Notes under the pieces: generated by a model
Told to the model about the DNA's origin: nothing
The model's database searches: none
What the model saw: only the letters and a program-made list of their open reading frames with translations
Shown here: positions 25,846 to 59,451 of the stretch, piece after piece
Layout of the letters: each line of letters opens with the position of its first letter
Position numbering within the stretch: the stretch's first letter is position 1
Origin: Blastocatellia bacterium
Lineage (GTDB): Bacteria > Acidobacteriota > Blastocatellia > UBA7656
Length of the DNA: 64,000 nucleotides
Direction of reading: 5' to 3'
NCBI GenBank assembly: GCA_035275065.1
Contig: DATENM010000014.1
Location: forward strand, 151,178 to 215,177
Translations under genes and position numbers: made by a program

Positions 25846-25964
25846 GGAAGCAGGAGGCAGGAGGCAGGAGGCAGTTGCTGATCGCCAGGCATTATTTGCC
25901 TCTGGTCGTCGCGACAGTTTGCCTATCCTCTGGACTGCTTCCTGCCACCTGCTTCCTGCCTCCT
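25846..25964. repeat. Heptamer-arm palindromic element, (GCAGGAG)n / (CTCCTGC)n family, copy A
   Basis: The left arm is ggaagcaggaggcaggaggcaggaggcag and the right arm is ctgcttcctgccacctgcttcctgcctcct, with a loop of about 60 nt. It lies between convergent rpsU (+) and the HEAT gene (-). Confidence 0.8.
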
Positions 25965-25966
25965 AA

Positions 25967-26743
25967 TCATTGGTCCGGCGCGGCGCGCAAACGGCGCAGC
26001 GCCTCTTGCATCTGGCTTCGGGTTTCTTCTTCACGCTCACCGGTCACCGCGTCATTGAGCGCGCTCAAAGCGCGCTTGTCGCCGATGTCTGCCAGCGCCA
26101 GCGCCGCCGCCAGCTTCACCGTCCGCGACTCATCCTTAAGCAGCAGAATCAGCGATTCAACCGCCCGCCGGTCGTGCAGGTCGCCGAGCGCCGCTGCCGC
26201 CGTCGCGCGCACATCGGGCGCTGGCTCCCTGACTAAAAGCAACAGCGCCGGCACGGCGCGCTCATCCCGCAACGCGCCCAACCCCATCACCGCCGCCGCG
26301 CAGACGCTCGTGTTCGAGTCTTTCAAGGCGAGCATCAACGGCTCGACGGCGCGCTTGTCGCCCAACTGGCCCAGCACGCGGGCCGCGGCGCTACGCACAA
26401 AAGCCACCTCGTCTTTCAGCAGGGCCATCAGCGGCTCGACGGCGCGTTTGTCCGGCAAGCCGCCGAGCGCGTTGGCCGCCGCGGCGCGCACGCCGGCGTC
26501 CGTGTCTTTGAGCATAGCGATCAGCGGCTCGACGGCGCGCGCGTCTTCCATCTCGGCCAGCTTGTCAATGGCGTCGTGGCGGTCGGCTGCCGTCGCGCTC
26601 TTCAATCGCTGCACCTGCTTGGCGAAGTCATCGGGCTTCTGCGCCGCCGAAGCCGAGCCTTGAAGCGCGCCGCACCAGCCCGCCACCGGCAGCGCCAGGC
26701 CCAGCCCATAGACCACAATCATGATTTTCAGCTTCATCATCAT
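25967..26743 (-). CDS. Secreted PBS-lyase-type HEAT-repeat protein
   Basis: Start placed at ATGATGATG (26743), which overlaps the upstream gene's TGA (ATGA). There is a signal peptide MMMKLKIMIVVYGLGLALPVAGWCGA. Five or more repeats match the pattern in KRAVEPLMALLKDEVAFVRSAAARVLGQLGD. Confidence 0.7.
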   Translation of the reverse strand: MMMKLKIMIVVYGLGLALPVAGWCGALQGSASAAQKPDDFAKQVQRLKSATAADRHDAIDKLAEMEDARAVEPLIAMLKDTDAGVRAAAANALGGLPDKRAVEPLMALLKDEVAFVRSAAARVLGQLGDKRAVEPLMLALKDSNTSVCAAAVMGLGALRDERAVPALLLLVREPAPDVRATAAAALGDLHDRRAVESLILLLKDESRTVKLAAALALADIGDKRALSALNDAVTGEREEETRSQMQEALRRLRAAPDQ

Positions 26744-27123
26744 TGATCCCTGGCTATTAATTTGATTATCGAGATGCCCAGATTGACGGCCAGTGCGATG
26801 ATCGCGGCGACGAGGAGATAGACCGGCCCGCCAATGACCACCACCGCCCACTCTTCGATCTGCCACCGAAAAGTGAGCAAAAATACAAAGAGAAAAAGGG
26901 CCAGCGCCAGCACCGCCGCCGACAAAGTGGCGAGCTTGCCGGCGCTGCCGAGTTGCGCATACGTCGCCCAGGCGCGAATCAACGGGGCATAAATCCAGGC
27001 TAACCAGGAATCGCTTGCCCACTGACCGCCGGCAATCGCCCAGACCGCGCCGAAAACGTATAGCAGGCTCGCGGCCAGGACGCTTAAATTCAGAGCCAAC
27101 CGCAAGCGGGCCAGCCGCGCCAT
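26740..27123 (-). CDS. Small integral membrane protein (about 4 TM helices)
   Basis: 127 aa, hydrophobic throughout. Its stop overlaps the downstream HEAT gene's start. Confidence 0.5.
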   Translation of the reverse strand: MARLARLRLALNLSVLAASLLYVFGAVWAIAGGQWASDSWLAWIYAPLIRAWATYAQLGSAGKLATLSAAVLALALFLFVFLLTFRWQIEEWAVVVIGGPVYLLVAAIIALAVNLGISIIKLIARDQ

Positions 27124-27138
27124 CGGTGTTGACGACGG

Positions 27139-27318
27139 CTAACTGCCGAACATACCGCCGAGCTTATCACCCAGCCCGCCCGGCAGCTTGCCGAGCAGCG
27201 ATGACGCCTGCTCGGGATGCTCTTTGAAGAAGTTGAGCACCGTGTCTACAGACTGCTCGGCCTTCTGTTGATCCAAGCCTACCTTCGAAACCAGCAATGA
27301 TACCAGTTGTTCTTTCAT
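27139..27318 (-). CDS. Small hypothetical protein (59 aa), first gene of a 3-gene minus-strand operon
   Basis: MKEQLVSLLVSKVGLDQQKAEQSVDTVLNFFKEHPEQASSLLGKLPGGLGDKLGGMFGS. GGGGAG lies upstream, and the next gene starts 15 nt downstream. It is below the ORF-track length cutoff. Confidence 0.4.
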   Translation of the reverse strand: MKEQLVSLLVSKVGLDQQKAEQSVDTVLNFFKEHPEQASSLLGKLPGGLGDKLGGMFGS

Positions 27319-27371
27319 TATCTCCCCTTTAAAAAATCCTGCCGCCTCAAGGCGCGGCGCATCGTTTCGGC

Positions 27372-28544
27372 TTACACAATCTCTCTGAGAAAGCTGCGGC
27401 CCGCCTGCAACTCCAGGCCGAAGTTTTCGGCGACCGTCTGCCCCAGATCAGCAAGCGAGGCGCGTGTGCCTAGATTGACGCCGGCGCGAGCGCGGCGGCC
27501 CCAGCCCAGCACCGGCACATATTCGCGGGTGTGGTCGGTCGAAACATCGCCCGGGTCGCAGCCGTGATCCGCGGTTATTAAAAGCAAGTCGTCATCGCGC
27601 ATCGCCTGTTGAATCTCCGGCAATTGCGCGTCGAAGGCTTCGAGAGCGCGAGCGTAGCCTTCGACATCGTTGCGATGGCCGTAGAGCATATCGAAGTCAA
27701 CGAGATTGGTGAAGATCAAGCCGCGCGGCGTCGTCTGTAACGCCTTGAGCGTTTGCTCGACGCTGGCGTTGTTGTTGCCGGCTTTCAACTCTTCAGTCGT
27801 GCCGCGATGGCAGAAGATCGAGCCGATCTTGCCGACTGCCGCGACCGCCAGATCAGCCGCCTTTAAACGATCAAGCAAGGTGTCGGCGGGCGGATCGATA
27901 GCGTAATCCTGGCGCGCTTCGGTGCGGCGAAAGTCGCCCGGCGTGCCGATGAACGGGCGGGCAATGACGCGCCCAACTTCGTCTGCGCCGACGAGCAAGG
28001 CGCGGGCGATCTTGCACCACTCATAGAGCTGTTCGAGCGGCACCACCTCTTCGTGAGCGGCGATTTGAAAGACGCTGTCGGCTGAAGTGTAAACAATCGG
28101 GTGGCCTGTGCGGACGTGCTCCTCGCCCAGCTCCTTGATGATCTCGGTTCCCGACGCCGGCTTGTTGCCAATCACCGGGCGACCGATGGCGCGCTCGAAG
28201 GCTTCGATGATGTGCGGCGGAAAGCCGTGCGGGTAAGTCGGAAAGGGCCGGGCGGTGATGAGGCCGCCCATCTCCCAGTGGCCGGTCGTCGTGTCCTTGC
28301 CGCGCGAAGCGGTGGCGGCGCGGCCATAGATGCCTGTGGGGGTGGCGACCGGCTCGATGGGCAAGCGGCGGATGTTGCCGAGTCCCAGAGCTTGTAGATT
28401 CGGCACGCGCACGTCACGCGAACCGAGCGTATGGCCGAGCGTATCCGCCCCCAGATCGCCATAATCCGCGGCGTCGGGCATCTCGCCGATGCCACAGCTA
28501 TCCAGCACGATCAACACCACGCGATTGAAAGGTTGCTCAAGCAT
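27372..28544 (-). CDS. deoB: Phosphopentomutase
   Basis: The N-terminus [32 protein letters not shown] and overall length match DeoB. GGGGAG lies before the ATG. Confidence 0.85.
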
Positions 28545-28596
28545 CGATTCGCTCCCCTGCCTGCGATTCTATGCCGTCAGCCGATGCGACACAAGA

Positions 28597-28835
28597 GCAG
28601 GAAGTAGGAAGCAGGAGGCAGAAGGCAGGGAGCAGGAAGCAGTCCCGTCAGGGACGCCATGTTTATAGTGATAGATGACGAAAATGATGAAGCCCCGTAG
28701 GGGCGAAATGTTGACATCGCGCTCCTACGGAGCTTGCATCCTTTAGAGCGTCGGTGACTATACACATCGCGCTCCTAACGGAGCTTGCGGATCAACTGCC
28801 TCCTGCTTCCTGCCTCCTGCCTCCTGCTTTCTCGT
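28597..28835. repeat. Heptamer-arm palindromic element, (GCAGGAG)n family, copy B, with a ~150 bp structured core (MITE-like)
   Basis: The arms are gcaggaagtaggaagcaggaggcagaaggcagggagcaggaagcag and ctgcctcctgcttcctgcctcctgcctcctgctttctcg. The core contains repeated ...catcgcgctcctacggagcttg... units. The core is the reverse complement of the core of the element at 56457-56752. Confidence 0.8.
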
Positions 28836-30828
28836 TTCTCGCGCGCACGAGTTGGGTCACTGCCGTGTACAGCTCGTCGAGCGTGGCGCGGCGCTCTGCC
28901 GGCTGCTTGAAGCCGAGGGCCGTTAGCACCAGCTCATCAAGGCGGCGGCGGTCGAAGCGCCGCACTTCATCAAAGACCGAGCCAACAGGCCGGTCAGCCA
29001 TCTCGGTCAACGCCGCTTCGAGACGGCGTCGCAGCCCCGGCGGAATCGCTCGCGGGTCGGGAATCAACAACTGTGCGGCGACGGCGACATCGATATCGGC
29101 GATGGCCTGCGCGCCGGTCATCTGCCGGCAGGTCACTTCGGCGTAGTAGCGCGCCCAGGTCGAATTGAGCAGCGCCGCCAGCAACAGCTCCGAAACGCCC
29201 CGCCGCGGATAGACGCCATAGAGTTTCTTATCTTCAAAGACGCCGGCGCGATTCACCGCCACCAGCCAGCGCTCGCCGATCTTCGAGGGCAGGATGAGCG
29301 GCGCCGCCCGCCGGCTTCGCGTCACCGCGTACCAACGGTCGCGCGCCGCGCAGCTCGGGCGCAGATGATAGCCGGCGCGCTCGCCGCTGCGAATATAGGC
29401 GAGCGCCCGCGTGCCGCGCAGCTCATCTGCCGCCAACGCACAGTTGAAAAACAAGCGCCGCGAGCTGACCTCTGTAAGCCAGATCGCCGGAATCTCTTTC
29501 AACGAAAAGATCACCGGCACAAGAAAGCGCGCCTCAAGCTGATGACGAGCGCCCGCGGCATCTTGAACTTCGATGATCGAACGATCTGTAGCCTTCGCCA
29601 CTTTTCGCGCCCGATGGTTGGTCGGCGCGGCGATATCGCGCACCGGCTTGAGGTAGAAGAACTCATTCGCGCCGGTCGTCAGCCCGCGCCGCACCCGCGC
29701 GATGTCGTCTAAGGCCAGCAGCGCGCCTTGAGCCTTTTGCGCTCCCCCAGGTTTTTTCAGGTAGAAGAAATCGTTGGCGCCGGTCTTCACACCGAAACGG
29801 ACTTGCGCCAGTTCCGCCAGCCGGAGCAGCCGCGCGCCGCCGCGTTCGAGGATGCGAAAGAAAACATCATCGGCGCGCAGGTACTTGCCCCAGCCGTTCG
29901 CCGCGCTACTCGCGCGCGGGCCCGCATCCGTGTCGGTCAGCGCCCCCTGGCTAACCATGCGGAGGCGATAAGCGGCGGTGGTCGTCGCCACGTCGGCGCG
30001 CTCAATGGCGTGGGCAAACGCCTGCGTTGCGACAATGGAGTTCTGCCGTTTGTTCAAGATCGCGACGAGCGGCTGATTGAGTTGAACGAAGCGAACCGTG
30101 TTCGCGGCGCGCTGCTCGGCGTCCGGCTCGCGCTCAAGCACGGTGATGCTGGTGTTGACCGAAGCGTCAACGAAAAAGCTCTCCGCCGTTGACTCGATCA
30201 CCGCGATGACGCGGAAGTTATCGAGCAAGAAACGGCGCAGCGCCGCGCCGTAGCCGGCGTCGAGCCAGCTACTCGCCGTCAGAAAGACCAGCCTGCCGCC
30301 AGCTCTCAGGAAACGAATCGCCCGCGCGAAAAAGTAAACGTAAATATCCGAGCGGCCTGACCAGCGCGGCCAGATCACTTCGGGCGCAGATTGCCGATCA
30401 CTCAACAACCGGCGCTCGATGCGTCGCTTGTCGGGTGCGCCCATCACTTCCTGGCGAATGTAAGGCGGATTGCCGATGACCGCGTCGCAGCATTCCGGCA
30501 AACGCAACCTGTCGCTGAGTGGCGCGCCCGGCTCAAGGTCGAAGAAATCGGCCCGCGCCACCCGCGCGCCGGTCGCCGCCGCAAGCATGACCGCCTGCGC
30601 CGAGCGATCAATGCCGAAGACCCCGCGGGCAAGCTCGTGCGGCGACGCTTTCGTTGCAAGCTGCCGCTTGGCGTTGATGGCTTCCGCAAGCAAGCGCCCG
30701 TCGCCGCACGCCGGGTCAAAGACCCGATCAGCCGCCGAGCGCACGGCAAACGCCGCCAGCAGCCGCGCCACCTCGACCGGCGTGTAGTGTTGTCCGTAGC
30801 GGTGCCGCTCGTCTCTTGCCTTCGCCAT
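28792..30828 (-). CDS. N6-adenine DNA methyltransferase, Eco57I/TaqI-like (gamma-class, DPPY-type NPPY motif) with C-terminal target-recognition-like region
   Basis: GQHYTP...VFDPACGDGRLL (motif I) and VIGNPPYI (motif IV). A C-terminal region carries duplicated GVKTGANDFFYLKKP / GLTTGANEFFYLKPV motifs. No restriction endonuclease gene is adjacent. The last 12 codons (KAGGRRQEAGGS) are encoded by the heptamer-repeat arm of element B. Confidence 0.8.
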   Translation of the reverse strand: MAKARDERHRYGQHYTPVEVARLLAAFAVRSAADRVFDPACGDGRLLAEAINAKRQLATKASPHELARGVFGIDRSAQAVMLAAATGARVARADFFDLEPGAPLSDRLRLPECCDAVIGNPPYIRQEVMGAPDKRRIERRLLSDRQSAPEVIWPRWSGRSDIYVYFFARAIRFLRAGGRLVFLTASSWLDAGYGAALRRFLLDNFRVIAVIESTAESFFVDASVNTSITVLEREPDAEQRAANTVRFVQLNQPLVAILNKRQNSIVATQAFAHAIERADVATTTAAYRLRMVSQGALTDTDAGPRASSAANGWGKYLRADDVFFRILERGGARLLRLAELAQVRFGVKTGANDFFYLKKPGGAQKAQGALLALDDIARVRRGLTTGANEFFYLKPVRDIAAPTNHRARKVAKATDRSIIEVQDAAGARHQLEARFLVPVIFSLKEIPAIWLTEVSSRRLFFNCALAADELRGTRALAYIRSGERAGYHLRPSCAARDRWYAVTRSRRAAPLILPSKIGERWLVAVNRAGVFEDKKLYGVYPRRGVSELLLAALLNSTWARYYAEVTCRQMTGAQAIADIDVAVAAQLLIPDPRAIPPGLRRRLEAALTEMADRPVGSVFDEVRRFDRRRLDELVLTALGFKQPAERRATLDELYTAVTQLVRARNEKAGGRRQEAGGS

Positions 30829-30918
30829 CGTTATCCATCTTGCTGCGCGCCGCGCCGGTATCTACAATCAATTGAGGGATGACCGCCGGCGGTCTTAAGA
30901 GTAGCAACTGAAAAGCTG

Positions 30919-31947
30919 ATGACGAAAGACGCCATTCTAAACGAGCTGGAGAAACAGCCCTTCGTGCCGCACCCGCGGCTAAAGAACGGCCACGCGCAGA
31001 CGCTCGCCGGGGCGCTCATCCGTCGCCGCTTCAAGCGGGTGATCGAGAATTGCGAAGAGCGGCTTTTTGACATCGCGCCGGGCGGCCAGGTGCTCGGCCA
31101 CTGCTCGTGGCAGGCAGACCGCACCATTCGTCCGACGCTCGTGCTGGCCCACGGCATGGAAGGCTCGACCGAATCTCGCTATATGCTCGGCACCGCGGAA
31201 AAGGCTTTGGAAGCCGGTTTCAACGTCATCCGCATGAACGTCCGCAACTGCGGCGGCACAGAACACCTGACGCCGACGCTCTATCACGCGGGGCTGACCG
31301 AAGACCTCAAACAGATCATCAGTGAGCTGAGCGAGCGCGATGGCCTGAGCGAGATTTATCTTGCGGGCTTCTCGCTCGGCGGCAACATGGTGTTGAAGCT
31401 GGCGGGCGAATACGCCACCACTGCGCCGGCGGCGCTGCGCGGCGTCATCGCCGTATCGCCTTCGATAGACCTCGCCGCTTGCGCCGATGCCATCGAGATG
31501 CGCTCGAACCTGATCTATCATTTCAAATTCATCACCAGCCTGCGCAACCGCCTGCGCCGCAAAGCGCGGCTCTTTCCCGACCGCTACGACGCCTCGCGGC
31601 TGCGCGGCGTCTGGACGATTCGCCGCTTCGACGATTTGATTACCGCGCCGCACATGGGCTTTCAAAACGTCGCCAACTATTACGAGCGTGCCAGCGCCCT
31701 GCCCTTCGTTGAGCGCATCAGTGTGCCGACGCTGATCGTCAGCGCCAAGGATGACCCCTTCATCCCCTTCGCGCCGTTCGAGCGCCCCGAAGTCACCGCC
31801 AACCCCAACGTCGCGTTGATCGCCCCGGCGCATGGCGGCCACGTCGGCTTCGTCTCCGCCAACGGCGAAGGCGAGGGCCGCTTCTGGGCCGAAGCAACCA
31901 TCGTCAACTTTGCCCGGCTCATCAACGAAGGCCGCCGATCACGCTAA
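30919..31947 (+). CDS. Alpha/beta hydrolase, YheT/ABHD-like
   Basis: GFSLGGN (GxSxG nucleophile) and HG...G oxyanion region, with architecture typical of COG0429-type hydrolases. A terminator hairpin ttgtggga-aagcgca-tcccacaa follows. Confidence 0.7.
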   Translation: MTKDAILNELEKQPFVPHPRLKNGHAQTLAGALIRRRFKRVIENCEERLFDIAPGGQVLGHCSWQADRTIRPTLVLAHGMEGSTESRYMLGTAEKALEAGFNVIRMNVRNCGGTEHLTPTLYHAGLTEDLKQIISELSERDGLSEIYLAGFSLGGNMVLKLAGEYATTAPAALRGVIAVSPSIDLAACADAIEMRSNLIYHFKFITSLRNRLRRKARLFPDRYDASRLRGVWTIRRFDDLITAPHMGFQNVANYYERASALPFVERISVPTLIVSAKDDPFIPFAPFERPEVTANPNVALIAPAHGGHVGFVSANGEGEGRFWAEATIVNFARLINEGRRSR

Positions 31948-32240
31948 GCTCAACAACTCAAACCATCTTAACCTAAGCGGTTGTGGGAAAGCGCATCCCA
32001 CAAGCGAACAGGGAGCAGAGGCCGGGGCCGGAGGCCAGGGGCCTGTAGAAGTCGCACCCGGCGAGTCGCAATGGCCTCGGCTGATCAACCAGCGCGTGAA
32101 GTAACTTGTCTGAAACCTGGGGTTAAACAAATTAGCCGCGCGTTTGCAACCTTTCCTTCCTTCAGACCACTGACCATTACCCGCTGGCCCCTGCCCGCGT
32201 GGCACGCCGCTTGGCTATGTCTAGCGGAGTTTTACGAGCA

Positions 32241-33851: not shown

Positions 33852-33853
33852 GA

Positions 33854-33960
33854 GTGACAAGTGACAAGTGACAAGTGACAAGAGCGTGTCGGTGTTGCTA
33901 CTACGCTCTCCCACTCATTACTCATCACTCATCACCTCTTGTCACTTGTCACTTGTCACT
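33854..33960. repeat. Heptamer-arm palindromic element, (GTGACAA)4 / (TTGTCAC)3 family
   Basis: gtgacaagtgacaagtgacaagtgacaag ... cttgtcacttgtcacttgtcact. The loop itself contains (ACTCATC/T)3. It lies between the response-regulator stop and the first ADOP RBS (cggagag). Confidence 0.8.
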
Positions 33961-33972
33961 CGGAGAGTCCCT

Positions 33973-36420: not shown

Positions 36421-36524
36421 GTTTCTGGTTAGGGAAAGCGCCAGGGATGACAACCAGGAACCGCCAGCGGGCGAAGCCCATCTCCCGCTAAGGGAACCAG
36501 AAACCGCAAACCGGAGGTTTGCTG

Positions 36525-38948: not shown

Positions 38949-39064
38949 GGGGAACGAGAGGCCAGGGACTGGGGGCTAGAGCCAGAAGAACAGCTGCGAT
39001 ACTAGTCGTCTCATGGTGACTTCGGGCATTAGCCTCTAGTCGCTGGCCGCTACTGGAGATACTG

Positions 39065-41592
<2,528 letters not shown>

Positions 41593-44164: not shown

Positions 44165-44165
44165 T

Positions 44166-44278
44166 CCAATTGCGGATTGCGGATTGGCGAACTTGTTCCT
44201 GAGTTTCATTTGATATTTGCGCCGTTAAGCTCTGAAGAAATCCGGGTTCCAGAATCCGCAATCCGCAATCCGCAATCG
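44166..44278. repeat. Heptamer-arm palindromic element, (GATTGCG)n / (CGCAATC)n family, copy 1
   Basis: ccaattgcggattgcggattggcg ... cagaatccgcaatccgcaatccgcaatcg. The loop shares cttgttcctgagtttcatttga and ttctgaaga.aatccg.ggttccag with the copy at 55421-55553. Confidence 0.8.
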
Positions 44279-44291
44279 AGAGAGGTGACGA

Positions 44292-46691
44292 ATGCAAACG
44301 ATGCTGCAAGACCTGCGATATGGGGCGCGCATGCTGCGCAAGAAGCCGGGCTTTACGCTGGTGGCGATCATTACACTGGCGCTTGGCATCGGCGCGAACA
44401 CGGCGATCTTCACGGTGATCTACGCGGTGCTGTTGCGTCCGCTGCCGTTTAACGAGCCCGACCGCGTGGTCTGGATGTGGGGCGCGGTGCGCGACCGCGT
44501 CAGCCGTGCCAGCGTCTCGCCGCTCGACTTCCTCGATTACCGCGCCCGCAATCAGAGCTTCGACGAATTCGCCGCCTCGATTTCGATTCCCATTTCATTC
44601 AACCTGACGGGCAGCGGCGAGCCCGAACGCCTGAGCGGCGCGGTGGTGACGACGAATTATTTCGCCGCGCTCGGCGTCAACCCGATGCTGGGGCGGGCCT
44701 TCATCAGCGAAGAAGAACAGGCGGGCCACGACCGCGTCATCATTCTCAGCCACGGCTTGTGGCAAAGGCGTTTCGGCGCCGACCCGGCGATCATTGATCG
44801 TACCCTCACCCTCGACGGCCAGAGCCTCACGGTCATCGGCGTTATGCCGCCGAAGATACGCTTCCCATACGACGCCGACCTGTGGCGGCCTATGAGCTTC
44901 GATGCGGCTCCCGAAATGAAGCAGCGACGCGCGCACTTCTTGCGTCCCCTCGGGCGGCTCAAGGCGGGCGTCACCGTGCAGCAGGCGCAGGCCGAGATAG
45001 ACACCATCGCCGGTCAATTAGAAGCGCAATACCCGGAGACCAATACCAAGTGGTCGATGTTGCTGGTGCCGCTTCAAGAGCGCATCGTTGGCGACATTCG
45101 TCCGACGCTCTGGGTGCTGCTCGGCGCGGTCGCCTTCGTGCTGCTGATCGCTTGTAGCAACGTGGCGAACCTGCTGCTGGCGCGCGCCTCGTCGCGCCAG
45201 AGAGAGATTGCCATCCGCCTGGCTATGGGCGCGAGTCGCTGGCGCATCGTCCGGCAGATGCTGACTGAGAGTCTCGTACTTGCGTTCGCCGGCGGCGTGC
45301 TTGGCATCTTGCTGGCGTGGTGGGGCGTTGACATTCTGCTCAGCTTCAGCGACGCGAGCATCCCGCGGGCCGCCGAGATCGGCGTTAACGCGACCGTGCT
45401 CGTCTTCACGCTGGCCGTTTCACTGATCACCGGCACCCTCTTCGGGTTGGTGCCTGCGTTGGGGGCCTCGCGGCCTGACCTGCACGACACGCTCAAAGAG
45501 GGCAGCCGCAGCGTCAGCGGCGCGCGCCACCGATTGCGCAGCCTGCTGGTGATTGCCGAAAGCGCCCTGGCGGTAGTGCTGCTGATCGGCGCCGGCTTGC
45601 TGATTAAGAGCTTCGTCAAGCTGCAACAGGTCGGCCCCGGCTTTGAAGCGGAGCACGTCTTGACGATGCGCCTCGACCTGCCGCGCAGCAAGTCCGCCGA
45701 GCAGGTGGCAGATTTCTATGACCAGCTACAACAGCGCGTCGCGGGGCTGGCCGGCGTCGAAGCGGTCGGCATGGTGTCAGAGCTGCCTTTGACCGGCCAG
45801 CCCAATGACGCGCCGTTCGCTATCGAAGGGCGCACCCTCGAAGCTCCCGACCAGAGGCCCAACGCCGATTTCCGCCGCGTCAATCACGACTACTTCCGGG
45901 CCTTGCGCATCCCGCTGCTCAAGGGGCGACAGTTCACCGAGCAAGAAGCGCGTCAGGGCGCGGGCGTGGCGATCATCAGTGAGCGGCTGGCGCAGCAGTA
46001 CTTCCCCGATGAAGAACCGCTAGGCAAGTATCTAGCGTTTGACTTCAACAAGCAGCTGCGATTTGAAATCGTCGGCATCGTCGGCGACGTGCGCCATCGG
46101 GCGCTGGCGCAAGACACCTACCCGGCGTTGTACGTGCCGTCGCTTTCGATCCCGTGGACGAATCTGGTCATCCGCTCGGCGAATGATCCGGCAAACCTTG
46201 CCGCCGCCGTGCGCAAAGAGGTCGGCGCGCTCGATGCGCAGCAACCGATTGCGGCGATCAAGCCGATGGCGCAATGGCTCTCGGAATCGGTCGCGCAGCC
46301 GCGCTTCCGCACCCTCTTGCTCGGTGTCTTTGCGGCCATCGCGCTGCTGCTTTCGGTGATCGGCATCTACGGCGTGATGAGTTATGTGGTCGCGCAGCGG
46401 ACACGCGAGGTCGGCATTCGCATGGCGCTCGGCGCCAGCCGCCGCGACGTGCTGAGACTGGTCGTCGGACAGGGTATGAAGCTGGCGATTGCGGGCGTCG
46501 CCCTCGGCCTGGGGGCCGCCTATGGCCTGACGCGATTGCTGGCGAGCCTGCTCTACGAAGTGAGCGCCACAGACCCCGCGACCTTTATCGCCATCGCCTT
46601 GCTGCTGGCAGGAGTGGCTCTGGCAGCCTGTTTCGTGCCGGCTCGCCGCGCCACGAAGGTAGACCCGATGGTGGCGCTGCGCTACGAATAG
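44292..46691 (+). CDS. ADOP-family permease, paralog 5
   Basis: N-terminus [26 protein letters not shown]...; C-terminus ...[17 protein letters not shown]. Confidence 0.85.
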   Translation: MQTMLQDLRYGARMLRKKPGFTLVAIITLALGIGANTAIFTVIYAVLLRPLPFNEPDRVVWMWGAVRDRVSRASVSPLDFLDYRARNQSFDEFAASISIPISFNLTGSGEPERLSGAVVTTNYFAALGVNPMLGRAFISEEEQAGHDRVIILSHGLWQRRFGADPAIIDRTLTLDGQSLTVIGVMPPKIRFPYDADLWRPMSFDAAPEMKQRRAHFLRPLGRLKAGVTVQQAQAEIDTIAGQLEAQYPETNTKWSMLLVPLQERIVGDIRPTLWVLLGAVAFVLLIACSNVANLLLARASSRQREIAIRLAMGASRWRIVRQMLTESLVLAFAGGVLGILLAWWGVDILLSFSDASIPRAAEIGVNATVLVFTLAVSLITGTLFGLVPALGASRPDLHDTLKEGSRSVSGARHRLRSLLVIAESALAVVLLIGAGLLIKSFVKLQQVGPGFEAEHVLTMRLDLPRSKSAEQVADFYDQLQQRVAGLAGVEAVGMVSELPLTGQPNDAPFAIEGRTLEAPDQRPNADFRRVNHDYFRALRIPLLKGRQFTEQEARQGAGVAIISERLAQQYFPDEEPLGKYLAFDFNKQLRFEIVGIVGDVRHRALAQDTYPALYVPSLSIPWTNLVIRSANDPANLAAAVRKEVGALDAQQPIAAIKPMAQWLSESVAQPRFRTLLLGVFAAIALLLSVIGIYGVMSYVVAQRTREVGIRMALGASRRDVLRLVVGQGMKLAIAGVALGLGAAYGLTRLLASLLYEVSATDPATFIAIALLLAGVALAACFVPARRATKVDPMVALRYE

Positions 46692-46806
46692 AAGTCAGGA
46701 GTCAGGAGTCAGAAGTCAGAATAAAAGCGGCGGCGGACAAGCGTACTCGCTGCCGCCGACTTCCCTTTCCATTCCGACTCCTGACTCCTGACTCCTGGCT
46801 CCCTGG
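46691..46806. repeat. (GGAGTCA)n palindromic element, copy 2
   Basis: gaagtcaggagtcaggagtcagaagtcagaat-aaaagcggcggcgg...ccgacttccctttccattc-cgactcctgactcctgactcctggctccctgg, then GGAGG and the ATG at 46814. Confidence 0.8.
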
Positions 46807-46813: not shown

Positions 46814-49222
46814 ATGCAAACACTGCTGCAAGACATTCGCTACGGGGCGCGCATGCTGATGCGCAACCCGACCTTCACCGCCGTCGCGGTCGTCGCCCTG
46901 GCTTTAGGTATCGGCGCCAACGCGGCGATCTTCTCGGTCGTCAACGCCGTGTTGCTCCGTCCGCTGCCCTATGCGGAGCCGGATCGCTTGATGATGATCC
47001 GCGAGACCAAGTTGCCGCAGTTCCCCGAATTCTCTGTCGCGCCCGGCAACTTTCTCGAATGGCAGAAACAGAACACCGTCTTCGAGCGCCTGGTGGCAAT
47101 CAACAGTAGCGCCTTCAACCTGATCGGCGCGGGCGAGCCTGAGCGGCTGCAAGGGCAGCGCGTCAGCGACGGTTTCTTCGCTATGCTCGGCGCCAAGCCG
47201 GCGCTCGGTCGTGACTTTCTCGCCGAAGAAGACCAGCCCGGACACAACCAGGTCGTGATCATCAGTCATGGCTTATGGCAGCGGCGCTTCGGCGGCGACC
47301 CGAATGTCCTGGGCCAGGCCATCACGCTCAATGGATTGAGCTACACCATCATCGGCGTGATGCCGCCGGACTTTCGCTATGGTGGTCAGACGACTGAGTT
47401 GTGGACGCCTGTGGGGTTCACCGCCGATCAAGCGCAGCAGCACGGCGCGCATTATATCGGCGTCGTCGGGCGGCTCAAGCCGGGTGTCACGGTCGAGCAG
47501 GCGCGCACCGAGATGGTCGCCATCGCCGCACGGCTGTCCGAACAATTTCCCGGCCCGCTCACGGGTTGGAGCGTCAGGGTTGAGCCGATGCTCGACTACA
47601 CCGTCCGCAGCATCAAGCTGGCGCTCTATGTATTGTTGGGCGCGGTCGGCTTCGTCCTGTTGATCGCCTGCGCCAACGTCGCCAACTTGCTGATGGCGCG
47701 CGCCACCTCGCGGCAGAAAGAGATCGCCGTGCGCACAGCGCTTGGCGCGAGCCGCTGGCGCATCGTCCGCCAGTTGCTGACCGAAAGCGTGCTGCTCGCC
47801 GTGATCGGCGGCGTGATCGGCATGGTGCTCGCCGTCTGGGGCAAAGACCTGCTGCTGTCGCTTGCGCCCGAAGACCTGCCGCGCGTGCGCGACGCGGCGC
47901 TCGACGGCTGGGTGCTCGCCTTCACCGGCGGCATCACGCTGCTGACCGGCTTGATCTTCGGAGTGGTGCCGGCGTTGCAAGCGTCAAAGCCGAACCTCAA
48001 CGAGACGTTGAAAGACGCCGGGCGCGGCTCAACCGAAGGCGGTCACCGCCACTTGATTCGCAGCCTGCTGGTCATCCTTGAAGTCGCGACGGCGCTGGTG
48101 CTGCTGGTCGGCGCGGGCTTACTGATCAAGAGCTTTCTGCGCTTGCAGAATGTCGACCCCGGTTTCAATCCCGACAACGCCTTGATGGTGAAGATCGCGC
48201 TGCCGGGCAAGAAATACAACGAGCCGGATCAGCAGGCCGCTTTCTATAATCAGCTGCTCGAAAAAGTTTCGCAGTTGCCCGGCGTCGAGGCCGCCGGCGC
48301 GGCGGTCGTCCTGCCGCTCGACAACGACTTCCTGCTCGGCTTCGAGATCGAAGGCCGCCCGCCGCTGCCCGCCGATCAGGATCAGAGCACGAACTACTAC
48401 TCGGTGACGCCAGGTTACTTTAAAGCGATGGGCATCCCGCTGCGCCGTGGGCGACTGTTCGACGACCGCGACCGCAAGAACGCGACGCGCGTCATCATCA
48501 TCAACGAGGAGATGGCGCGACGACTCTTCCCCGACGAAGACCCGCTCGGCAAGCGCATCCATGTGACGATGGGCGAGAAGCTTTATCGTGAAGTCGTCGG
48601 CGTCGTCGGCGACGTCAAGCAGAATGGGTTGGATCAGAAGACGCCGCTTGAAACCTACGAGCCGTTCGCGCAACAGCCGTTCTCATCAATGTCGCTGGTC
48701 GTCCGCGCCGCCGGCGACCCGACCGCGTTGAGCAATGCCATTCGCGGTGAAGTATTGAGCATTGACAAAGACCAGCCGGTCTCAAGCATCAAGCCGCTCA
48801 CCGAACTGGTGCGCTCGTCCATCGCGCAGCAGCGTTTCGCGATGTTGTTGCTGGGCGTCTTTGCGGCGGTGGCGATGTTGTTGGCGGTGGTCGGTATTTA
48901 TGGCGTGATGTCGTATTCGGTGACGCAACGCACGCACGAGATCGGCATCCGCATGGCCCTGGGCGCGAGTCCGCGCAACGTGCTGCGGCTGGTCGTCGGG
49001 CACGGGATGCGGCTGGCATTGATCGGCGTGGCGCTCGGATTGAGCATCGCCTTCCTGGTGACGCGCATCATGGCGAGCTTGCTATTCGGCGTCAGCGCCA
49101 CCGACCTGATGACCTTCACCGTCTTTTCCGTATCGTTGACCGCCGTGGCGCTGGTCGCCTGCCTGGTGCCGGCTCGCCGCGCCTTGAAGGTAGACCCGAT
49201 GGTGGCGCTGCGCTACGAATAG
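46814..49222 (+). CDS. ADOP-family permease, paralog 6
   Basis: True start [26 protein letters not shown], with GGAGG 5 nt upstream. The ORF-track N-terminal extension to 46274 runs through the intergenic palindrome and the 3' end of paralog 5 and is rejected. Confidence 0.85.
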   Translation: MQTLLQDIRYGARMLMRNPTFTAVAVVALALGIGANAAIFSVVNAVLLRPLPYAEPDRLMMIRETKLPQFPEFSVAPGNFLEWQKQNTVFERLVAINSSAFNLIGAGEPERLQGQRVSDGFFAMLGAKPALGRDFLAEEDQPGHNQVVIISHGLWQRRFGGDPNVLGQAITLNGLSYTIIGVMPPDFRYGGQTTELWTPVGFTADQAQQHGAHYIGVVGRLKPGVTVEQARTEMVAIAARLSEQFPGPLTGWSVRVEPMLDYTVRSIKLALYVLLGAVGFVLLIACANVANLLMARATSRQKEIAVRTALGASRWRIVRQLLTESVLLAVIGGVIGMVLAVWGKDLLLSLAPEDLPRVRDAALDGWVLAFTGGITLLTGLIFGVVPALQASKPNLNETLKDAGRGSTEGGHRHLIRSLLVILEVATALVLLVGAGLLIKSFLRLQNVDPGFNPDNALMVKIALPGKKYNEPDQQAAFYNQLLEKVSQLPGVEAAGAAVVLPLDNDFLLGFEIEGRPPLPADQDQSTNYYSVTPGYFKAMGIPLRRGRLFDDRDRKNATRVIIINEEMARRLFPDEDPLGKRIHVTMGEKLYREVVGVVGDVKQNGLDQKTPLETYEPFAQQPFSSMSLVVRAAGDPTALSNAIRGEVLSIDKDQPVSSIKPLTELVRSSIAQQRFAMLLLGVFAAVAMLLAVVGIYGVMSYSVTQRTHEIGIRMALGASPRNVLRLVVGHGMRLALIGVALGLSIAFLVTRIMASLLFGVSATDLMTFTVFSVSLTAVALVACLVPARRALKVDPMVALRYE

Positions 49223-49307
49223 AAGTCAGGAGCCAGGAGTCAGAAGTCAGAATAAAAGCGGCGGCGATAGCCGACTTCCCTTTCCATTCTGACTCCTGAC
49301 TCCCTGG
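49222..49307. repeat. (GGAGTCA)n palindromic element, copy 3
   Basis: gaagtcaggagccaggagtcagaagtcagaataaaagcggcggcgatagccgacttccctttccattctgactcctgactccctgg. Confidence 0.8.
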
Positions 49308-49314
49308 AGGATTT

Positions 49315-51774: not shown

Positions 51775-51796
51775 CGCGCTTTCTAGGAGGCTCGTT

Positions 51797-52957: not shown

Positions 52958-52974
52958 GGAGGCTAGATCACGTC

Positions 52975-55422: not shown

Positions 55423-55553
55423 TTCGAATGCGGATTGCGGATTGCGGATTGCGGATTATCGAGCTTGTTCCTGAGTTTCATTTGAACCCTCGCAGGCTCA
55501 AGTTCTGAAGAGAATCCGCGGTTCCAGAATCCGCAATCCGCAATCCGCAATTC
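55421..55553. repeat. (GATTGCG)n palindromic element, copy 2
   Basis: gattcgaatgcggattgcggattgcggattgcggatt ... cagaatccgcaatccgcaatccgcaattc, then AAGGAG and the ATG at 55566. Confidence 0.8.
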
Positions 55554-55565
55554 AAGGAGATAATT

Positions 55566-56456
55566 ATGCTTTTAACGATCTGCATGCTCTTTTTCGGCTT
55601 CTCGCCATCCGCTTCAACCGATGAATGGTCGAGAAGCTATCAGGTACAAGGCACGCCGAAAGTCCACGTCGAAACCGGCGACGCGAACATTCATGTGACG
55701 GTCGGCGAAGGCCGCACGGTCGCCGCCCGCATTACGACCGAAGGCTGGAAGATCGGCGGCGACGGCATCACGATCAGCGACCACCAGACCGGCGATCAGG
55801 TCGAGATCGAGGTGCGCTTCCCACGCCATATGTTTCACATCGACCTGGGCCACAGGCGCGTCGATATCGAGATCAAGGTGCCGCGCGAGGCCAGCCTCGA
55901 CCTGCACACAGGCGATGGCAACGTGGATGCGCAGGGCGTGCGCGGGTCAATCGTCTTGCGCAGCGGCGACGGCAACCTCAACCTATCGAACCTGGACGGA
56001 ACACTGCGCGCCGAGACCGGCGATGGCAACATCGATATGCGCGACGTTCGTGGCGACCTGACCCTGCACACCGGCGACGGGCGAATCGATGTGAGCGGCA
56101 TAGACGGCTCGTTGCGCGCTGAAACCGGCGACGGGCGCATCCACGTCAATGGGCGCTTTGACCTGCTCGATGTGAAGACCGGCGACGGCGGCATCAACGC
56201 CGAAGCGCTCGACGGCTCGAAGCTGGACGCCAACTGGCGGTTGAGCAGCGGCGATGGTGATTTGACGGTGCGCGTGCCAGCGACAATGGCTGCCGATGTC
56301 GAATTACACACCAGCGACGGGCACATTGATCTGGCGATGCCGGTCACGGTCATGGGCCGCACGGGAACACGCGAGCTGCACGGACGCATCAACGGCGGCG
56401 GCAAATTGCTCTCGTTGAGAACCGGCGATGGCTCGATCCGCCTGGAGCAGAAGTAA
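55566..56456 (+). CDS. DUF4097-type beta-helix repeat protein (LiaG/putative adhesin-like)
   Basis: Signal-like N-terminus. There are about 12 tandem ~19-21 aa repeats, for example TGDGNIDMRDVRGDLTLH-TGDGRIDVSGIDGSLRAE. Confidence 0.7.
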   Translation: MLLTICMLFFGFSPSASTDEWSRSYQVQGTPKVHVETGDANIHVTVGEGRTVAARITTEGWKIGGDGITISDHQTGDQVEIEVRFPRHMFHIDLGHRRVDIEIKVPREASLDLHTGDGNVDAQGVRGSIVLRSGDGNLNLSNLDGTLRAETGDGNIDMRDVRGDLTLHTGDGRIDVSGIDGSLRAETGDGRIHVNGRFDLLDVKTGDGGINAEALDGSKLDANWRLSSGDGDLTVRVPATMAADVELHTSDGHIDLAMPVTVMGRTGTRELHGRINGGGKLLSLRTGDGSIRLEQK

Positions 56457-56752
56457 GCAGGAGGCAGGAGGCAGGAGGCAGGAGGCAGTGCGTCGCCAAG
56501 CTCCGTAGGAGCGTGATGTTTATAGAGCGTGTCTGAAAAGACAGCTCCGTTAGGAGCGTGATGTTTATAGTCACCGGGTCGGTGTATTCATCAAGCTCCG
56601 TAGGAGCGCAATGTCAACATTCCGCCCCTACGGAGCTTGTTTCTTTTTTATGCCTGTAACTATTAACATCGCGTCCCTACGGGACTCTCTCCTGCCTCCT
56701 GCTTCCTGCCTCCTGCTTCCTGCCTCCTGCCTCCTGCTCTCTCCCCGCCCGC
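56457..56752. repeat. Heptamer-arm palindromic element, (GCAGGAG)n family, copy C, with a ~200 bp core that is the reverse complement of copy B's core
   Basis: The arms are gcaggaggcaggaggcaggaggcaggaggcag and ctcctgcctcctgcttcctgcctcctgcttcctgcctcctgcctcctgctctctcc. The core has 4 repeats of agctccgt(t)aggagcg[tc][ga]atgt. For example, C aatgttgacattgcgctcctacggagcttg (revcomp) aligns with B aaatgttgacatcgcgctcctacggagcttg. Confidence 0.8.
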
Positions 56753-56922
56753 TTTTGGGAAGCGCAATCCCGCAATCGGACAAGCGCCCGCCGCGCGCTT
56801 TCCGCAGTCCGCCTGCAAGTCTTAGCCCTTCAGCGTTTATTGCCACGCCATCTGCGGCACACCGATTGAACATCGAGGCGGGATTATTTCTTCTTCCAGC
56901 TCTGCACTGAGGAGACAAGACC

Positions 56923-59322
56923 ATGGCCACGCTCTGGCAAGACCTGCGCTATGCCACACGCATGTTGCTGAAAAGTCCCACCTACACGGCGGTTGCTATT
57001 CTGGCTCTGGCCTTAGGCATCGGGGCGAATACCGCCATCTTTTCAGTCGTCAACGCGCTGTTGCTGCGCCCACTGCCTTACATCGATTCCGAGCGCCTCG
57101 TGCTTGTCGAATCGGCCAACCAAAAGGCCGGCGCGCAGCCGCTCGGCGGCGTTTCGCCCGCGGACTTCTGGGACTTCCAGGAGCAGAGCGAAAGCTTCGA
57201 GCAACTGGTCGCCATGTCGGGCGGCGGCTTCAGCCTGACCGGTGTTGAAAACCCCGAATCGTTCCCCGGCGCGCGCGTCTCGACCAACTTCTTCGACGCG
57301 CTGCACGCCCGCCCGCTGCTGGGCCGCACCTTTCGCCCCGAAGATGGCTTCGTCAAGGCCGACGACACCATCATCCTCAGTTACCGTCTGTGGCAGGAAC
57401 GTTTCGGCGGCGACCCGAACGTCATCGGCACGACGCTTGGCGACACCGGCACGACGGTCATCGGCGTGATGCCGCCCGACTTTAAGTATCCCGGCTTCGC
57501 GCAGGTGTGGATTCCGCTGTCAAAAGATTCCGGCGAGATGCACAACCGCAGCAACCGCTACTTCGGCGTGATGGGCATGCTCAAGCCTGGGCAGACGCTT
57601 TCGGCGGCGCAGACCGAGTTGCAGACCATCGCCGGCCGACTCGAAGCGCAATACCCCGACAACGACAAAGAGATCACCGCAAAGTTGACGCTGTTTCGCA
57701 AATGGGTGGTGCGTGACGTGCAGGCGTCGCTGTGGATTCTGATGGGCGCGGTGACATTGATCCTGCTGATCGCCTGCGCCAACGTCGCTAATCTCTTGCT
57801 CGCCCGCGCCGCTTCAAGGCGTAAAGAGCTGGCGATTCGTTTCGCGTTGGGCGCGAGCCGCTGGCGCGTGATGCAGCAATTGCTGGCCGAGAGCCTGTTG
57901 CTGGCGCTGATCGGCGGCGCTGCCGGATTGCTGCTGGCGCTGTGGGGCGTAGACGCGCTGATGGGCTTGATGCCGGCAAGCTGGAACAACCTGAAGCTGC
58001 AAGACAAGGTCGGCATCGATCTGCTGGTGCTGGCCTTCACGCTGGCGACGACGCTGGTGACCGGCATCGCGCTTGGCCTGATCCCGGCGTGGCAGGCGTC
58101 GCGGCCCGACGTCAACGAATGGCTGAAGGAAGCCGGGCGCGGCTCGGAGGGCGTACGCCACCGCCGCACGCGGAATGTATTTGTCGTTACAGAGATCGCC
58201 CTTGCCCTGGTGGTGCTGATCGGCGCCGGGCTGCTGATTAACAGCTTCCTAAGACTGCAACGCAACGACCTCGGCTTCAACCCGCGCGGCCTGATGAACC
58301 TGAGCTTTGCGATGCCTTTCAATCGCTACCCGGATGACGCAGCGCGGTCGCGCTTCATCAAGCGCGTGCTTGACGAAGCGACCGCCGCGCCGGGCGTCGA
58401 AGCGGTGGCGGCGACCAGCGGCAACGTCTTCCCGTTTCTCTTTTTCAGCTTTAGCATCGTCGGCCAGCCGCAAGCAGTCGAGCAGGAAGGACTCTACGAC
58501 GCCATCAGCCCGAATTATTTCCGCGTCATCGGCGCTGAGATGACGGCGGGCCGCGAGTTCAACGACCACGACGACCAGCGCGCCCCTGCCGTGGCGATCA
58601 TCAACGAGTCGCTCCGTCGGCAATACTTCGCCGACAGCGAGCCGCTCGGCCAGCGCATCACGGTCAACTTCCTCGGACGGCCGCAGATGCGCGAGATTGT
58701 CGGCGTCGTCCGCGACTTCAATCAGGGCGAGCCGGGCAAGGTCACGCCGCAGGTCTTCGTCTGTTACCTGCAACAGCCGTGGCTGTCGGCTTCATTGCTG
58801 GTGCGCTCGGCGGGTGATACGGAAGCGACGCGCAAGTCTGTGCAAAGCGCCATCTGGGCCGTAGACAAAACGCAGCCGGCGCGCCGCCCAGACATGGCCG
58901 AGACCGTGTTAAACACGGCGCTCGGCGAGCCGCGTCTCTACACCTTGCTGCTCGGCAGCTTCGCGGCGCTGGCGCTGGTGCTCGCCGCGGTCGGCATCTA
59001 TGGCGTGATGAGCTACTCGGTGGCACAGCGCACGCAAGAGATCGGCATCCGCATGGCGCTCGGCGCAAGTCCCGGCAAGGTGCTGCGGATGATCGTCGGC
59101 CAGGGCATGACGCTGATCGTCGCCGGCATCACCTTCGGCCTGATCGGGGCATTCGTGCTGACGCGGCTGCTGGCGAGCCTGCTGTTTCGCATCAGCGCCA
59201 CCGATCCGCTGACCTACGCGGCGGTTATTCTCTTGCTGGCGCTGGTGGCGCTCGCCGCCTGTTACATCCCGGCACGGCGGGCGACGAAGGTTGATCCGAT
59301 GATCGCGCTGCGTTACGAGTAG
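56923..59322 (+). CDS. ADOP-family permease, paralog 9
   Basis: N-terminus MATLWQDLRYATRMLLKSPTYTAVAIL...; C-terminus ...[17 protein letters not shown]. Confidence 0.85.
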   Translation: MATLWQDLRYATRMLLKSPTYTAVAILALALGIGANTAIFSVVNALLLRPLPYIDSERLVLVESANQKAGAQPLGGVSPADFWDFQEQSESFEQLVAMSGGGFSLTGVENPESFPGARVSTNFFDALHARPLLGRTFRPEDGFVKADDTIILSYRLWQERFGGDPNVIGTTLGDTGTTVIGVMPPDFKYPGFAQVWIPLSKDSGEMHNRSNRYFGVMGMLKPGQTLSAAQTELQTIAGRLEAQYPDNDKEITAKLTLFRKWVVRDVQASLWILMGAVTLILLIACANVANLLLARAASRRKELAIRFALGASRWRVMQQLLAESLLLALIGGAAGLLLALWGVDALMGLMPASWNNLKLQDKVGIDLLVLAFTLATTLVTGIALGLIPAWQASRPDVNEWLKEAGRGSEGVRHRRTRNVFVVTEIALALVVLIGAGLLINSFLRLQRNDLGFNPRGLMNLSFAMPFNRYPDDAARSRFIKRVLDEATAAPGVEAVAATSGNVFPFLFFSFSIVGQPQAVEQEGLYDAISPNYFRVIGAEMTAGREFNDHDDQRAPAVAIINESLRRQYFADSEPLGQRITVNFLGRPQMREIVGVVRDFNQGEPGKVTPQVFVCYLQQPWLSASLLVRSAGDTEATRKSVQSAIWAVDKTQPARRPDMAETVLNTALGEPRLYTLLLGSFAALALVLAAVGIYGVMSYSVAQRTQEIGIRMALGASPGKVLRMIVGQGMTLIVAGITFGLIGAFVLTRLLASLLFRISATDPLTYAAVILLLALVALAACYIPARRATKVDPMIALRYE

Positions 59323-59451
59323 AAGTCAGGAGTCAGGAGTCAGGAGTCAGAATGGAAAAGGAAGAGGAGTCTCAAAGGTAGAATAAAAGCGGCGGCGAAG
59401 CCGACTCCCCTTTTCATTCTGTCTTCTGACTTCTGACTCCTGACTCCCTGG
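59322..59451. repeat. (GGAGTCA)n palindromic element, copy 4
   Basis: gaagtcaggagtcaggagtcaggagtcagaat...aataaaagcggcggcgaagccgactcc...attctgtcttctgacttctgactcctgactccctgg, then GGAGG and the ATG at 59459. Confidence 0.8.

Follow-up and report, generated by a model that had tools for sequence, protein, structure and literature searches.

The stretch analysed here, hereafter the window, comprises 64 kb of the metagenome-assembled genome of a soil Blastocatellia bacterium (Acidobacteriota). Its content is acidobacterial: it encodes a VWA-domain protein of acidobacterial type and ten permease paralogues of the ADOP family, and its response-regulator phosphatase has 100% identity to a protein encoded on a 382-kb contig of a Blastocatellia metagenome-assembled genome. 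The permease genes form a co-directional array (33973-61855) with mutual identities of approximately 35-51%, in which the only other genes are those for a c-type cytochrome and a LiaG-like protein, and no sigma-70-like promoter was called between the paralogues. By using Tandem Repeats Finder and an independent scan for reverse-complement partner arrays, we detected in the window twelve intergenic palindromes whose arms are tandem repeats, eleven of heptamers and one of octamers (E1 to E12, Table 1), in which each array has its reverse-complement partner 8-217 nt downstream; two further degenerate hairpins (H1 and H2) fill equivalent slots of the ADOP array. The heptamer elements are convergent inverted arrays that change in steps of 7 nt and have been copied from one paralogous junction to another; their loops acquire other repeats, whole elements are quickly replaced, and the arrays reach to the stop codon and to the Shine-Dalgarno sequence.

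A preliminary description of the same DNA had listed at least eleven such sites, all of which were recovered at the same positions, each array paired with its reverse complement, together with the heptamer run (ACTCATC)3 in the loop of the element at 33854 (E5; unpaired, 33912-33935) and the non-heptamer hairpin at 36421-36503 (H1). Its minimum count stood, but an AAGTAAA element (21998-22081) had been overlooked, and its loop sizes of 35-200 nt have to be replaced by the inter-arm gaps given above. Period 7 accounts for 17 of the 30 short-period arrays in the window, all 17 being intergenic, and with a slightly looser threshold 20 period-7 arrays were obtained against 0.02 expected from Markov-1 random sequences. 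Element density, in the window and its relatives, is about one per 5 kb. RNA folding, a check that had been proposed, predicts stems of 30-50 bp, with -41 to -75 kcal/mol for the short elements and z-scores from -3.1 to -14.1, and none of 200 shuffled sequences folded equally well; the ensemble frequency of the best fold is low because many alternative registers exist. An Rfam scan of the 64 kb, also proposed, returned no match at the gathering score.

Within the ADOP array the distance from stop codon to element is -5 to +8 nt and that from element to the following ATG is 7-13 nt, in agreement with the earlier statement that these elements end at the Shine-Dalgarno sequence, and the outermost degenerate unit includes the stop codon. 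The further statement that every copy begins 0-5 nt from a stop codon is adequate for the ADOP array and for the S21 and response-regulator sites, within the wider range just given, but not for the elements at 9752, which lies 21 nt past the stop, and 21998, which has no adjacent gene; at 28596 (E4) the right arm sits inside the 3' end of an open reading frame and encodes the C-terminal tail of a methyltransferase gene (28792-30828, minus strand). According to gene calls that are crude in the fetched loci, inverted pairs occupy 38 co-directional, 8 convergent and one divergent slot, and in other phyla pairs are also frequently located within a few nucleotides of stop codons.

The multicopy classes of the window are GGAGTCA (four copies), GCAGGAG (three) and GATTGCG (two). 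The four GGAGTCA copies can be mutually aligned through the loop and on into the adjoining ADOP genes, whose ends are conserved, as can the two GATTGCG copies, and the same-class copies of the array, which differ by 7- or 14-nt indels and central deletions, are therefore related by descent, through either duplication or gene conversion. Slippage is supported by the difference in multiples of 7 between E8 and E9, the right arm of E9 being 14 nt (two units) shorter, by the unequal arms of E11 (4.6 versus 7 units) and by locus L147 (L numbers denote loci retrieved from other genomes), where the arms have been homogenised for different variants.

A relationship of another kind links E4 and E11, which are homologous over their full length after one of them is reverse-complemented, despite their unrelated contexts, so that both have the same orientation relative to the local genes. 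They are one dispersed composite of 250-290 nt. Their loops (28690-28790 and 56497-56680) carry a second repeat family, with units of approximately CAAGCTCCGTAGGAGCG(y)rATGT(ttatag), which occurs as singlets and inverted doublets (e.g. 56592-56639) and resembles GTAG-type REP/REPIN sequences; many copies of this nested family adjoin (CAGTGGY)n arrays in L123 (17420-17965). The REP-like appearance is confined to these nested units (GCTCCGTAGGAGC...).

Such a dispersed composite, the REP/REPIN-like units in loops and the dominance of a few classes in each genome (GGAGTCA in the window, GATTGCC with six copies in L124 and GGCAAAA with four in L125) are what could be expected of MITE- or REPIN-like mobile elements with heptamer arrays as terminal inverted repeats, inserted by a genome-encoded transposase beside stop codons or into hairpins already present. 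We consider this origin quite unlikely. E4 and E11 do correspond to the near-identical copies of a MITE at unrelated loci, but most same-class copies have homologous, paralogous flanks; the inverted arms of a MITE are present here, but flanking direct duplications of the target site were absent, on inspection of the flanks by eye, at all 12 copies, and neither a transposase, RAYT included, nor a reverse transcriptase is encoded in the 64-kb window.

Syntenic contigs for comparison were recovered through response-regulator homologues (L121, L122 and L123) and from a metagenome scan (L125); the genes beside the slots share about 76-90% identity, and the ADOP genes were checked for orthology. Across five closely related Blastocatellia genomes, with about 80-90% identity, the slots are conserved but their content varies, a given slot holding another unit class, a palindrome of 10-mers or without repeats, a half element (in L122, the left arm and part of the loop) or nothing, with at least 14 unrelated units in all. 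After S21, the window has GCAGGAG, and L121 and L123 have CAGTGRY; between the metalloenzyme and methyltransferase genes, GCAGGAR of the window and L121 gives way to GATGAAT in L122 and GGCTAGR in L123; and between the abhydrolase and regulator genes, GGCCGGG-type arrays (window, L122 and L125) alternate with GATTTTG (L121) and GATTCAG (L123). The slot between the regulator gene and ADOP1 contains GTGACAA in the window and L121, a GTAG-tagged perfect palindrome with TTGTCAC remnants in L122, a palindrome with arms of tandem 10-mers (GATSAACACC / GGTGTTSATC; 7175-7300) in L125 and only 10 nt in L123, the heptamers of L121 and the 10-mers of L125 being flanked by genes of about 88-90% nucleotide identity. 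Between ADOP3 and ADOP4, GGAGTCA of the window is matched by GACGCGG in L122, TAGAGGT in L125 and an empty site of 14 nt in L123. Empty orthologous sites are 10-25 nt long. Even where two genomes have an arm class in common the loops are unrelated, which is a further argument against mobile elements.

This turnover also bears on the possibility that a nucleoid or regulatory protein binds to the arrays at the DNA level, or that they are targets of a protein with affinity for single-stranded heptamers. Repeats of the same architecture, including one identical unit, have been annotated in this way in Geobacter metallireducens (PMC2700814), a heptamer-repeat-binding partner has been postulated in Nostoc (bioRxiv 10.1101/2022.06.06.494920), and the strand polarity described below could reflect a polar binder. 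However, sequence-specific recognition is hard to reconcile with so many unrelated units in close genomes, replaced at orthologous sites, repeats spaced at 7 bp do not stay in phase with the turns of the DNA helix, and the elements are nearly absent from divergent (promoter) slots, so that binding sites appear very unlikely.

In L121, ADOP2 lies between two near-identical GGCAAAA palindromes (11411-11559 and 13993-14141), despite an identity of only 40-45% among the neighbouring genes, and L125, the nearest relative of L121, has a single GGCAAAA element (9770-10010) and no ADOP2, which is consistent with recombination between the copies and suggests that they mediate loss or gain of paralogues in this way. 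The elements appear to remodel a large paralogous transporter array, and they can rewrite protein C-termini: in four of four genomes the last 7-20 codons of the Eco57I-like methyltransferase (gene 3' end at 28792-28841 in the window) come from a heptamer arm, the tails differing from genome to genome (AGGRRQEAGGS*, SGSRKQEAGGSQENRAASIL*, AGGRVRK* and QRLEAGG*).

Heptamer arrays of the same kind are widespread. The 21-mer (GGAGTCA)3 was found at more than 120 loci among the matches listed, in at least 10 phyla and with cyanobacteria in the majority, where by our own arithmetic about 0.3 matches are expected by chance, a spread that would also suit mobile elements; the cyanobacterial arrays are mostly unpaired, whereas those of Acidobacteriota, Phycisphaerae, Gemmatimonadota and Chloroflexota are often paired. 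In a class-agnostic sample of 80 metagenomic acidobacterial ADOP loci, totalling 875 kb, there were 34 inverted pairs and 51 unpaired arrays of period 7, against 3, 2, 1, 0 and 0 inverted pairs at periods 5, 6, 8, 9 and 10, respectively. Inverted pairing is specific to period 7 in these data, the two large samples having been ascertained through one heptamer and one gene family. Palindromes of GATTGCN units reappear at the ADOP junctions of distant relatives, where the TGA stop is part of the first degenerate unit and the loops are conserved within, but not between, genomes. The loops of the GATTGCC palindromes of L124 (4725-17980) have in common a motif of CTTTGCG-containing 9-10-mers, which also forms separate long palindromes (L124, 2158-2260; L136, 2662-2749). 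GTTTCTG, of which H1 contains about 1.5 units, is a full heptamer class in L152, and H1 may be the remnant of a heptamer element.

A further regularity is the strand polarity of the pairs, which was counted by unit class because pairs within one genome are not independent. The 5'-arm unit has more G than C in 35 of 41 classes and more C than G in one, with five ties (75 pairs; binomial p ~1e-9), and all 11 heptamer elements of the window have the G-rich array first, in convergent orientation; the octamer element E1, the sole element of the window with C>G in its 5' arm, has the opposite skew. The composition of the 5'-arm units (G 33%, A 29%, T 26% and C 11%) corresponds to C-depletion and not to a purine or keto skew. 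The G-first rule holds in both co-directional and convergent slots, whereas it is absent from ordinary perfect intergenic hairpins of the same loci (21 G-first versus 13 C-first), from hairpins within open reading frames (10 versus 9) and from unpaired arrays after genes (14 versus 11, no strand bias). The C-rich arm tends to be the longer one (37 versus 22), a marginal difference. Given the counts for ordinary hairpins, polarity as a general hairpin rule, for instance through Rho avoidance, was rejected, as was C-to-T deamination of exposed strands, because A and T are about equally frequent in the 5' arm (84 versus 76). Two suggestions about the units themselves fared no better: a role of the heptamers in supplying stop codons in three frames was rejected because several units are stop-free in both arms, and only 2 of the approximately 14 classes of the Blastocatellia set fit Shine-Dalgarno mimics.

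The differing units at orthologous slots, and the architecture and polarity shared by 41 classes, support the suggestion of the preliminary description that the uniform architecture of units so different in sequence stems from a shared generating process and not from simple descent, although the same-class copies of the window are related by descent. The number of unrelated classes is again unfavourable to mobile elements, of which equally many families would be needed.

Polarity of this type would be left by break repair if both 3' ends of a break, located in the spacer or at the tip of a hairpin, were extended by reiterative synthesis with the same G-rich heptamer, in the manner of telomere addition, and then joined through filler DNA into a G-first palindrome of head-to-head arrangement. 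Consistent with such scars, G comes first in 35 of the 36 skewed classes, also in convergent slots but not in ordinary hairpins, the loops are unrelated while the arms are conserved, the arms are of unequal length, and all 70-75 inverted pairs of Xanthomonas have been reported as convergent (PMC4692102). Nevertheless we judge this explanation extremely unlikely, since no responsible enzyme was found, the variety of unit classes within a genome speaks against one template, no strand bias is seen in unpaired arrays and E1 has the opposite polarity. To our knowledge, no enzyme for reiterative heptamer addition has been described that could serve such repair. More specifically, the polarity, seen in convergent slots and in several phyla, and the unrelated loops might together be the footprint of an undescribed reiterative 7-nt synthesis on both 3' ends of a break or of an opened hairpin, followed by joining, a proposal with a very small chance of being right; if it were true, the elements would be bacterial analogues of head-to-head telomere fusions and the over-representation of heptamers would have an enzymatic cause.

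As the best explanation we propose that the elements are heptanucleotide microsatellite palindromes, generated through slippage and inverted duplication, which have spread from one paralogous junction to another and survive as self-contained hairpins at gene 3' ends or between cistrons, and we give this reading about an even chance. According to this proposal, a G-rich array, a variable spacer and the C-rich complement would allow the DNA or RNA to fold into a 30-50-bp hairpin that can slip in register, slippage would lengthen and shorten the arrays in 7-nt steps, with each arm able to homogenise separately, and an inverted duplication of an array would create the palindrome. Duplication would carry copies from one ADOP junction to another, or else gene conversion would do so by way of the conserved ends of the genes, and one class or more is dispersed as the 250-290-nt composite. 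Loops would be replaced and invaded by other palindromic repeats, and whole elements would disappear or be exchanged over about 10-20% of sequence divergence. The growth of arrays would stop at constrained sequence, which is the stop codon at one end of the slot and the Shine-Dalgarno sequence at the other. Once transcribed, an element would presumably fold on itself, so that 90-290 nt are looped out, which would leave the stop codon next to the following ribosome-binding site. Its most likely role, we postulate, is that of a REP-like RNA hairpin at 3' ends or between cistrons, as a barrier to 3'-exonucleases, a substrate of RNase III or a pause site or attenuator lacking a U-tract, and it would be dispensable at any single site. 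The transcript starts and ends in Xanthomonas repeats (PMC4692102) and the stabilising effect proposed for STRR hairpins (PMC2670836), both described below, lend support from other bacteria. Should such hairpins fix the 3' ends of mRNAs or uncouple cistrons, they would represent a major unannotated layer of gene-expression architecture in Acidobacteriota.

Several results weigh against this proposal. The elements resemble intrinsic terminators, in that a hairpin directly follows the stop codon and its symmetric form suits convergent genes, but they have no U-tract, stems 3-5 times longer and loops of up to 217 nt, and many lie inside an apparent operon, directly before the next Shine-Dalgarno sequence. 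A canonical terminator, with its hairpin and T-run, was called at none of the elements, and terminator and promoter scans gave nothing at the elements; matches to the terminator consensus, in the 40 kb of the window that were scanned, were barely above shuffle expectation and none coincided with an element. Selection on the sense-strand RNA was not apparent either: in a wobble test (G·U versus A·C), which is biased toward the folded strand, 45 sense and 35 antisense wobbles were counted, a difference that is not significant. By eye, variant units are mirrored between the arms only partly in L121 and not at all in L124 or L147. With no canonical terminators, no significant wobble signal and arms that can homogenise for different variants, strong RNA-level selection for perfect pairing is not evident, and a common origin and young age account better for the near-perfect stems. 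The empty orthologous slots show that no single copy is needed. Moreover, co-transcription of the ADOP genes is an assumption, the inverted duplication by template switching was deduced with no intermediate seen, and the proposal accounts neither for the 7-nt unit nor for the G-first polarity, which ordinary hairpins lack.

These points raise the question of whether the elements are purely mutational by-products, produced by a lineage-specific 7-nt slippage bias and palindrome-forming template switching in neutral intergenic DNA and seen, without any function, only where they are harmless, at 3' ends and in a form that folds on itself. Fast turnover with empty slots, arms that drift apart, the lack of a strand-specific wobble signal, the invasion of an unconstrained methyltransferase C-terminal tail and the over-representation of heptamers across bacteria (Mrazek 2007, as summarised in PMC4679880) would all agree with this. 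On the other hand, some hairpin is present in about 80% of 3'-end slots but in only one of four genomes at the divergent slot, a neutral and strand-symmetric process does not predict strict G-first polarity, and in Xanthomonas the repeats contain the starts or ends of transcripts more often than controls do (PMC4692102). We therefore view a pure by-product as unlikely.

The preliminary description could not place the elements in a described family. They belong to none of the REP, BIME and ERIC groups, and their arms are tandem arrays of many sequences, but precedents do exist in Xanthomonas (PMC4692102), in G. metallireducens (PMC2700814) and in the cyanobacterial STRR sequences (PMC2670836). 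The Xanthomonas GGGAATC heptamers (Rehm et al. 2015, PMC4692102) are intergenic tandem arrays of typically about four units, of which 70-75 cases per genome consist of two convergent arrays on opposite strands with the G-rich one first; they show a strong bias toward stop codons, at times overlapping the open reading frame, vary in length and sequence between close species and are transcribed. The tandem intergenic heptamers (two or more units), the convergent G-first pairs and the stop-codon location are all found here as well. In contrast to the single, G-quadruplex-prone unit of Xanthomonas, there are many units per genome that are not of this type, none of those in the window (GCAGGAG, GGAGTCA, GTGACAA, GATTGCG and AAGTAAA) having G3 tracts, and whereas Xanthomonas keeps 83% of its repeats in place between species, the unit class is replaced here at orthologous slots.

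In G. metallireducens (Aklujkar et al. 2009, PMC2700814), classes 1-3 comprise 3-5 tandem 7-9-mers with an opposite-strand copy at variable distance, interpreted, as a hypothesis, as IHF/HU "global regulator binding sites"; the junction of proB and proA, two genes of an operon, holds one copy, and class 1 is associated with insertion sequence (IS) insertions. Paired tandem 7-9-mers, with several unit classes in one genome, are common to both organisms, and the class 3 unit MTYCTGA (CTCCTGA/CTTCTGA) is the 3'-arm unit of the GGAGTCA class of the window; Geobacter belongs to another phylum.

The STRR sequences share with the present elements the dispersed, intergenic tandem heptanucleotides in several unit classes, some of which form hairpins, and (GGAGTCA)n is frequent in cyanobacterial genomes too, but the cyanobacterial arrays sampled are mostly unpaired direct runs in low-GC hosts. 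The STRR units CCCCAGT, TTGGTCA and CAACAGT, reportedly described by Mazel et al. in 1990 from heterocystous cyanobacteria, are not matched here, where both the host (Blastocatellia) and the units are different. STRR arrays are often located upstream of start codons (PMC4679880), and STRR hairpins between hupS and hupL have been proposed to stabilise transcripts or couple translation (PMC2670836).

The elements also resemble REP, BIME and REPIN sequences as fast-evolving intergenic palindromes just past stop codons, between co-transcribed or convergent genes. A REP, however, is an imperfect palindrome of 20-40 nt that carries a GTAG or CGTC tag and is mobilised by RAYT, each genome having one conserved sequence, and its arms are not tandem repeats, whereas the stems here are of 30-50 bp and of many sequences; REPs protect mRNA 3' ends, as in E. 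coli malEFG. Since the defining features of REP/REPIN elements, MITEs, intrinsic terminators and Rfam families were not found, we file the elements with the reported but unexplained heptamer-pair kind, in a new phylum and with many classes. In the literature searched there was no explained mechanism or function for the Xanthomonas, Geobacter or STRR precedents. What is new here is the turnover at orthologous slots, the inverted pairing specific to period 7, the G-first polarity and the 3'-end placement without canonical terminators. Although heptamer over-representation in bacteria has been known since 2007, it has remained without a mechanism or function, and the window and its relatives provide an unusually dense and diverse natural experiment in which three features are now testable, namely the period-7 inverted pairing, the G-first rule (35:1 classes) and the replacement of elements at fixed junctions.

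Table 1. Palindromes with tandem-repeat arms and equivalent hairpins in the 64-kb window.
Element	Position	Arms (5' / 3')	Array starts	Location	Other features
E1	9752..9825	octamer (CGCCAAGA)3 / (TCTTGGCG)3	9757/9796	between VWA-domain gene and ECF sigma gene	33-bp stem; 8-nt loop; z -14.1
E2	21998..22081	(AAGTAAA)n / (TTTACTT)n		900-nt gene-poor region	z -6.6
E3	25841..25968	(GCAGGAG)n / (CTCCTGC)n	25845/25935	1 nt after ribosomal protein S21 stop (S21 identity from syntenic loci), between convergent genes	z -8.0
E4	28596..28841	(GCAGGAR)n palindrome	28596/28796	right arm in methyltransferase gene	153-nt loop with REP/REPIN-like units
E5	33852..33961	(GTGACAA)4 / (TTGTCAC)3	33853/33938	between response-regulator phosphatase gene and ADOP1	arms 100% complementary
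H1	36422..36505	hairpin GGTTTCTGGTT...AACCAGAAACC		ADOP1>ADOP2	~1.5 units GTTTCTG
H2	38957..39051	degenerate heptamer palindrome, CYAGRGR units		ADOP2>ADOP3	
E6	41508..41592	(GGAGTCA)4 / (TGACTYC)n	41508/41572	ADOP3>ADOP4	overlaps TAG stop by 2 nt; other end at Shine-Dalgarno sequence
E7	44165..44281	(GATTGCG)n / (CGCAATC)n	44169/44253	ADOP4>ADOP5	
E8	46690..46806	(GGAGTCA)n / (TGACTCC)n	46690/46776	ADOP5>ADOP6	
E9	49221..49307	(GGAGTCA)n / (TGACTCC)n	49221/49289	ADOP6>ADOP7	
E10	55426..55553	(GATTGCG)4 / (CGCAATC)3	55429/55528	between ADOP8 and LiaG-like gene	
E11	56452..56742	(GCAGGAG)4.6 / (CTCCTGC)7	56457/56689		200-nt loop with REP/REPIN-like units
E12	59320..59450	(GGAGTCA)n / (TGACTYC)n	59324/59417	ADOP9>ADOP10	

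Three other features of the window were recorded. The stretch at 21610-22528, which contains E2, spans 900 nt between divergent genes with no convincing open reading frame and might encode an RNA. Between the convergent genes for a HEAT-repeat protein and a GH5 cellulase-like protein there is a 24-bp non-repeat hairpin (14316-14369, 96% complementary) followed by a weakly T-rich stretch, which may be a bidirectional terminator. Finally, a hairpin, AAGCGGTTGTGGGAAAGCGCATCCCACAAGCGAACAG, lies just 3' of the abhydrolase gene (31976-32012) and has no Rfam match; its sequence is kept in the window, L121, L122 and L123, whereas the heptamer arrays beside it show no comparable conservation.

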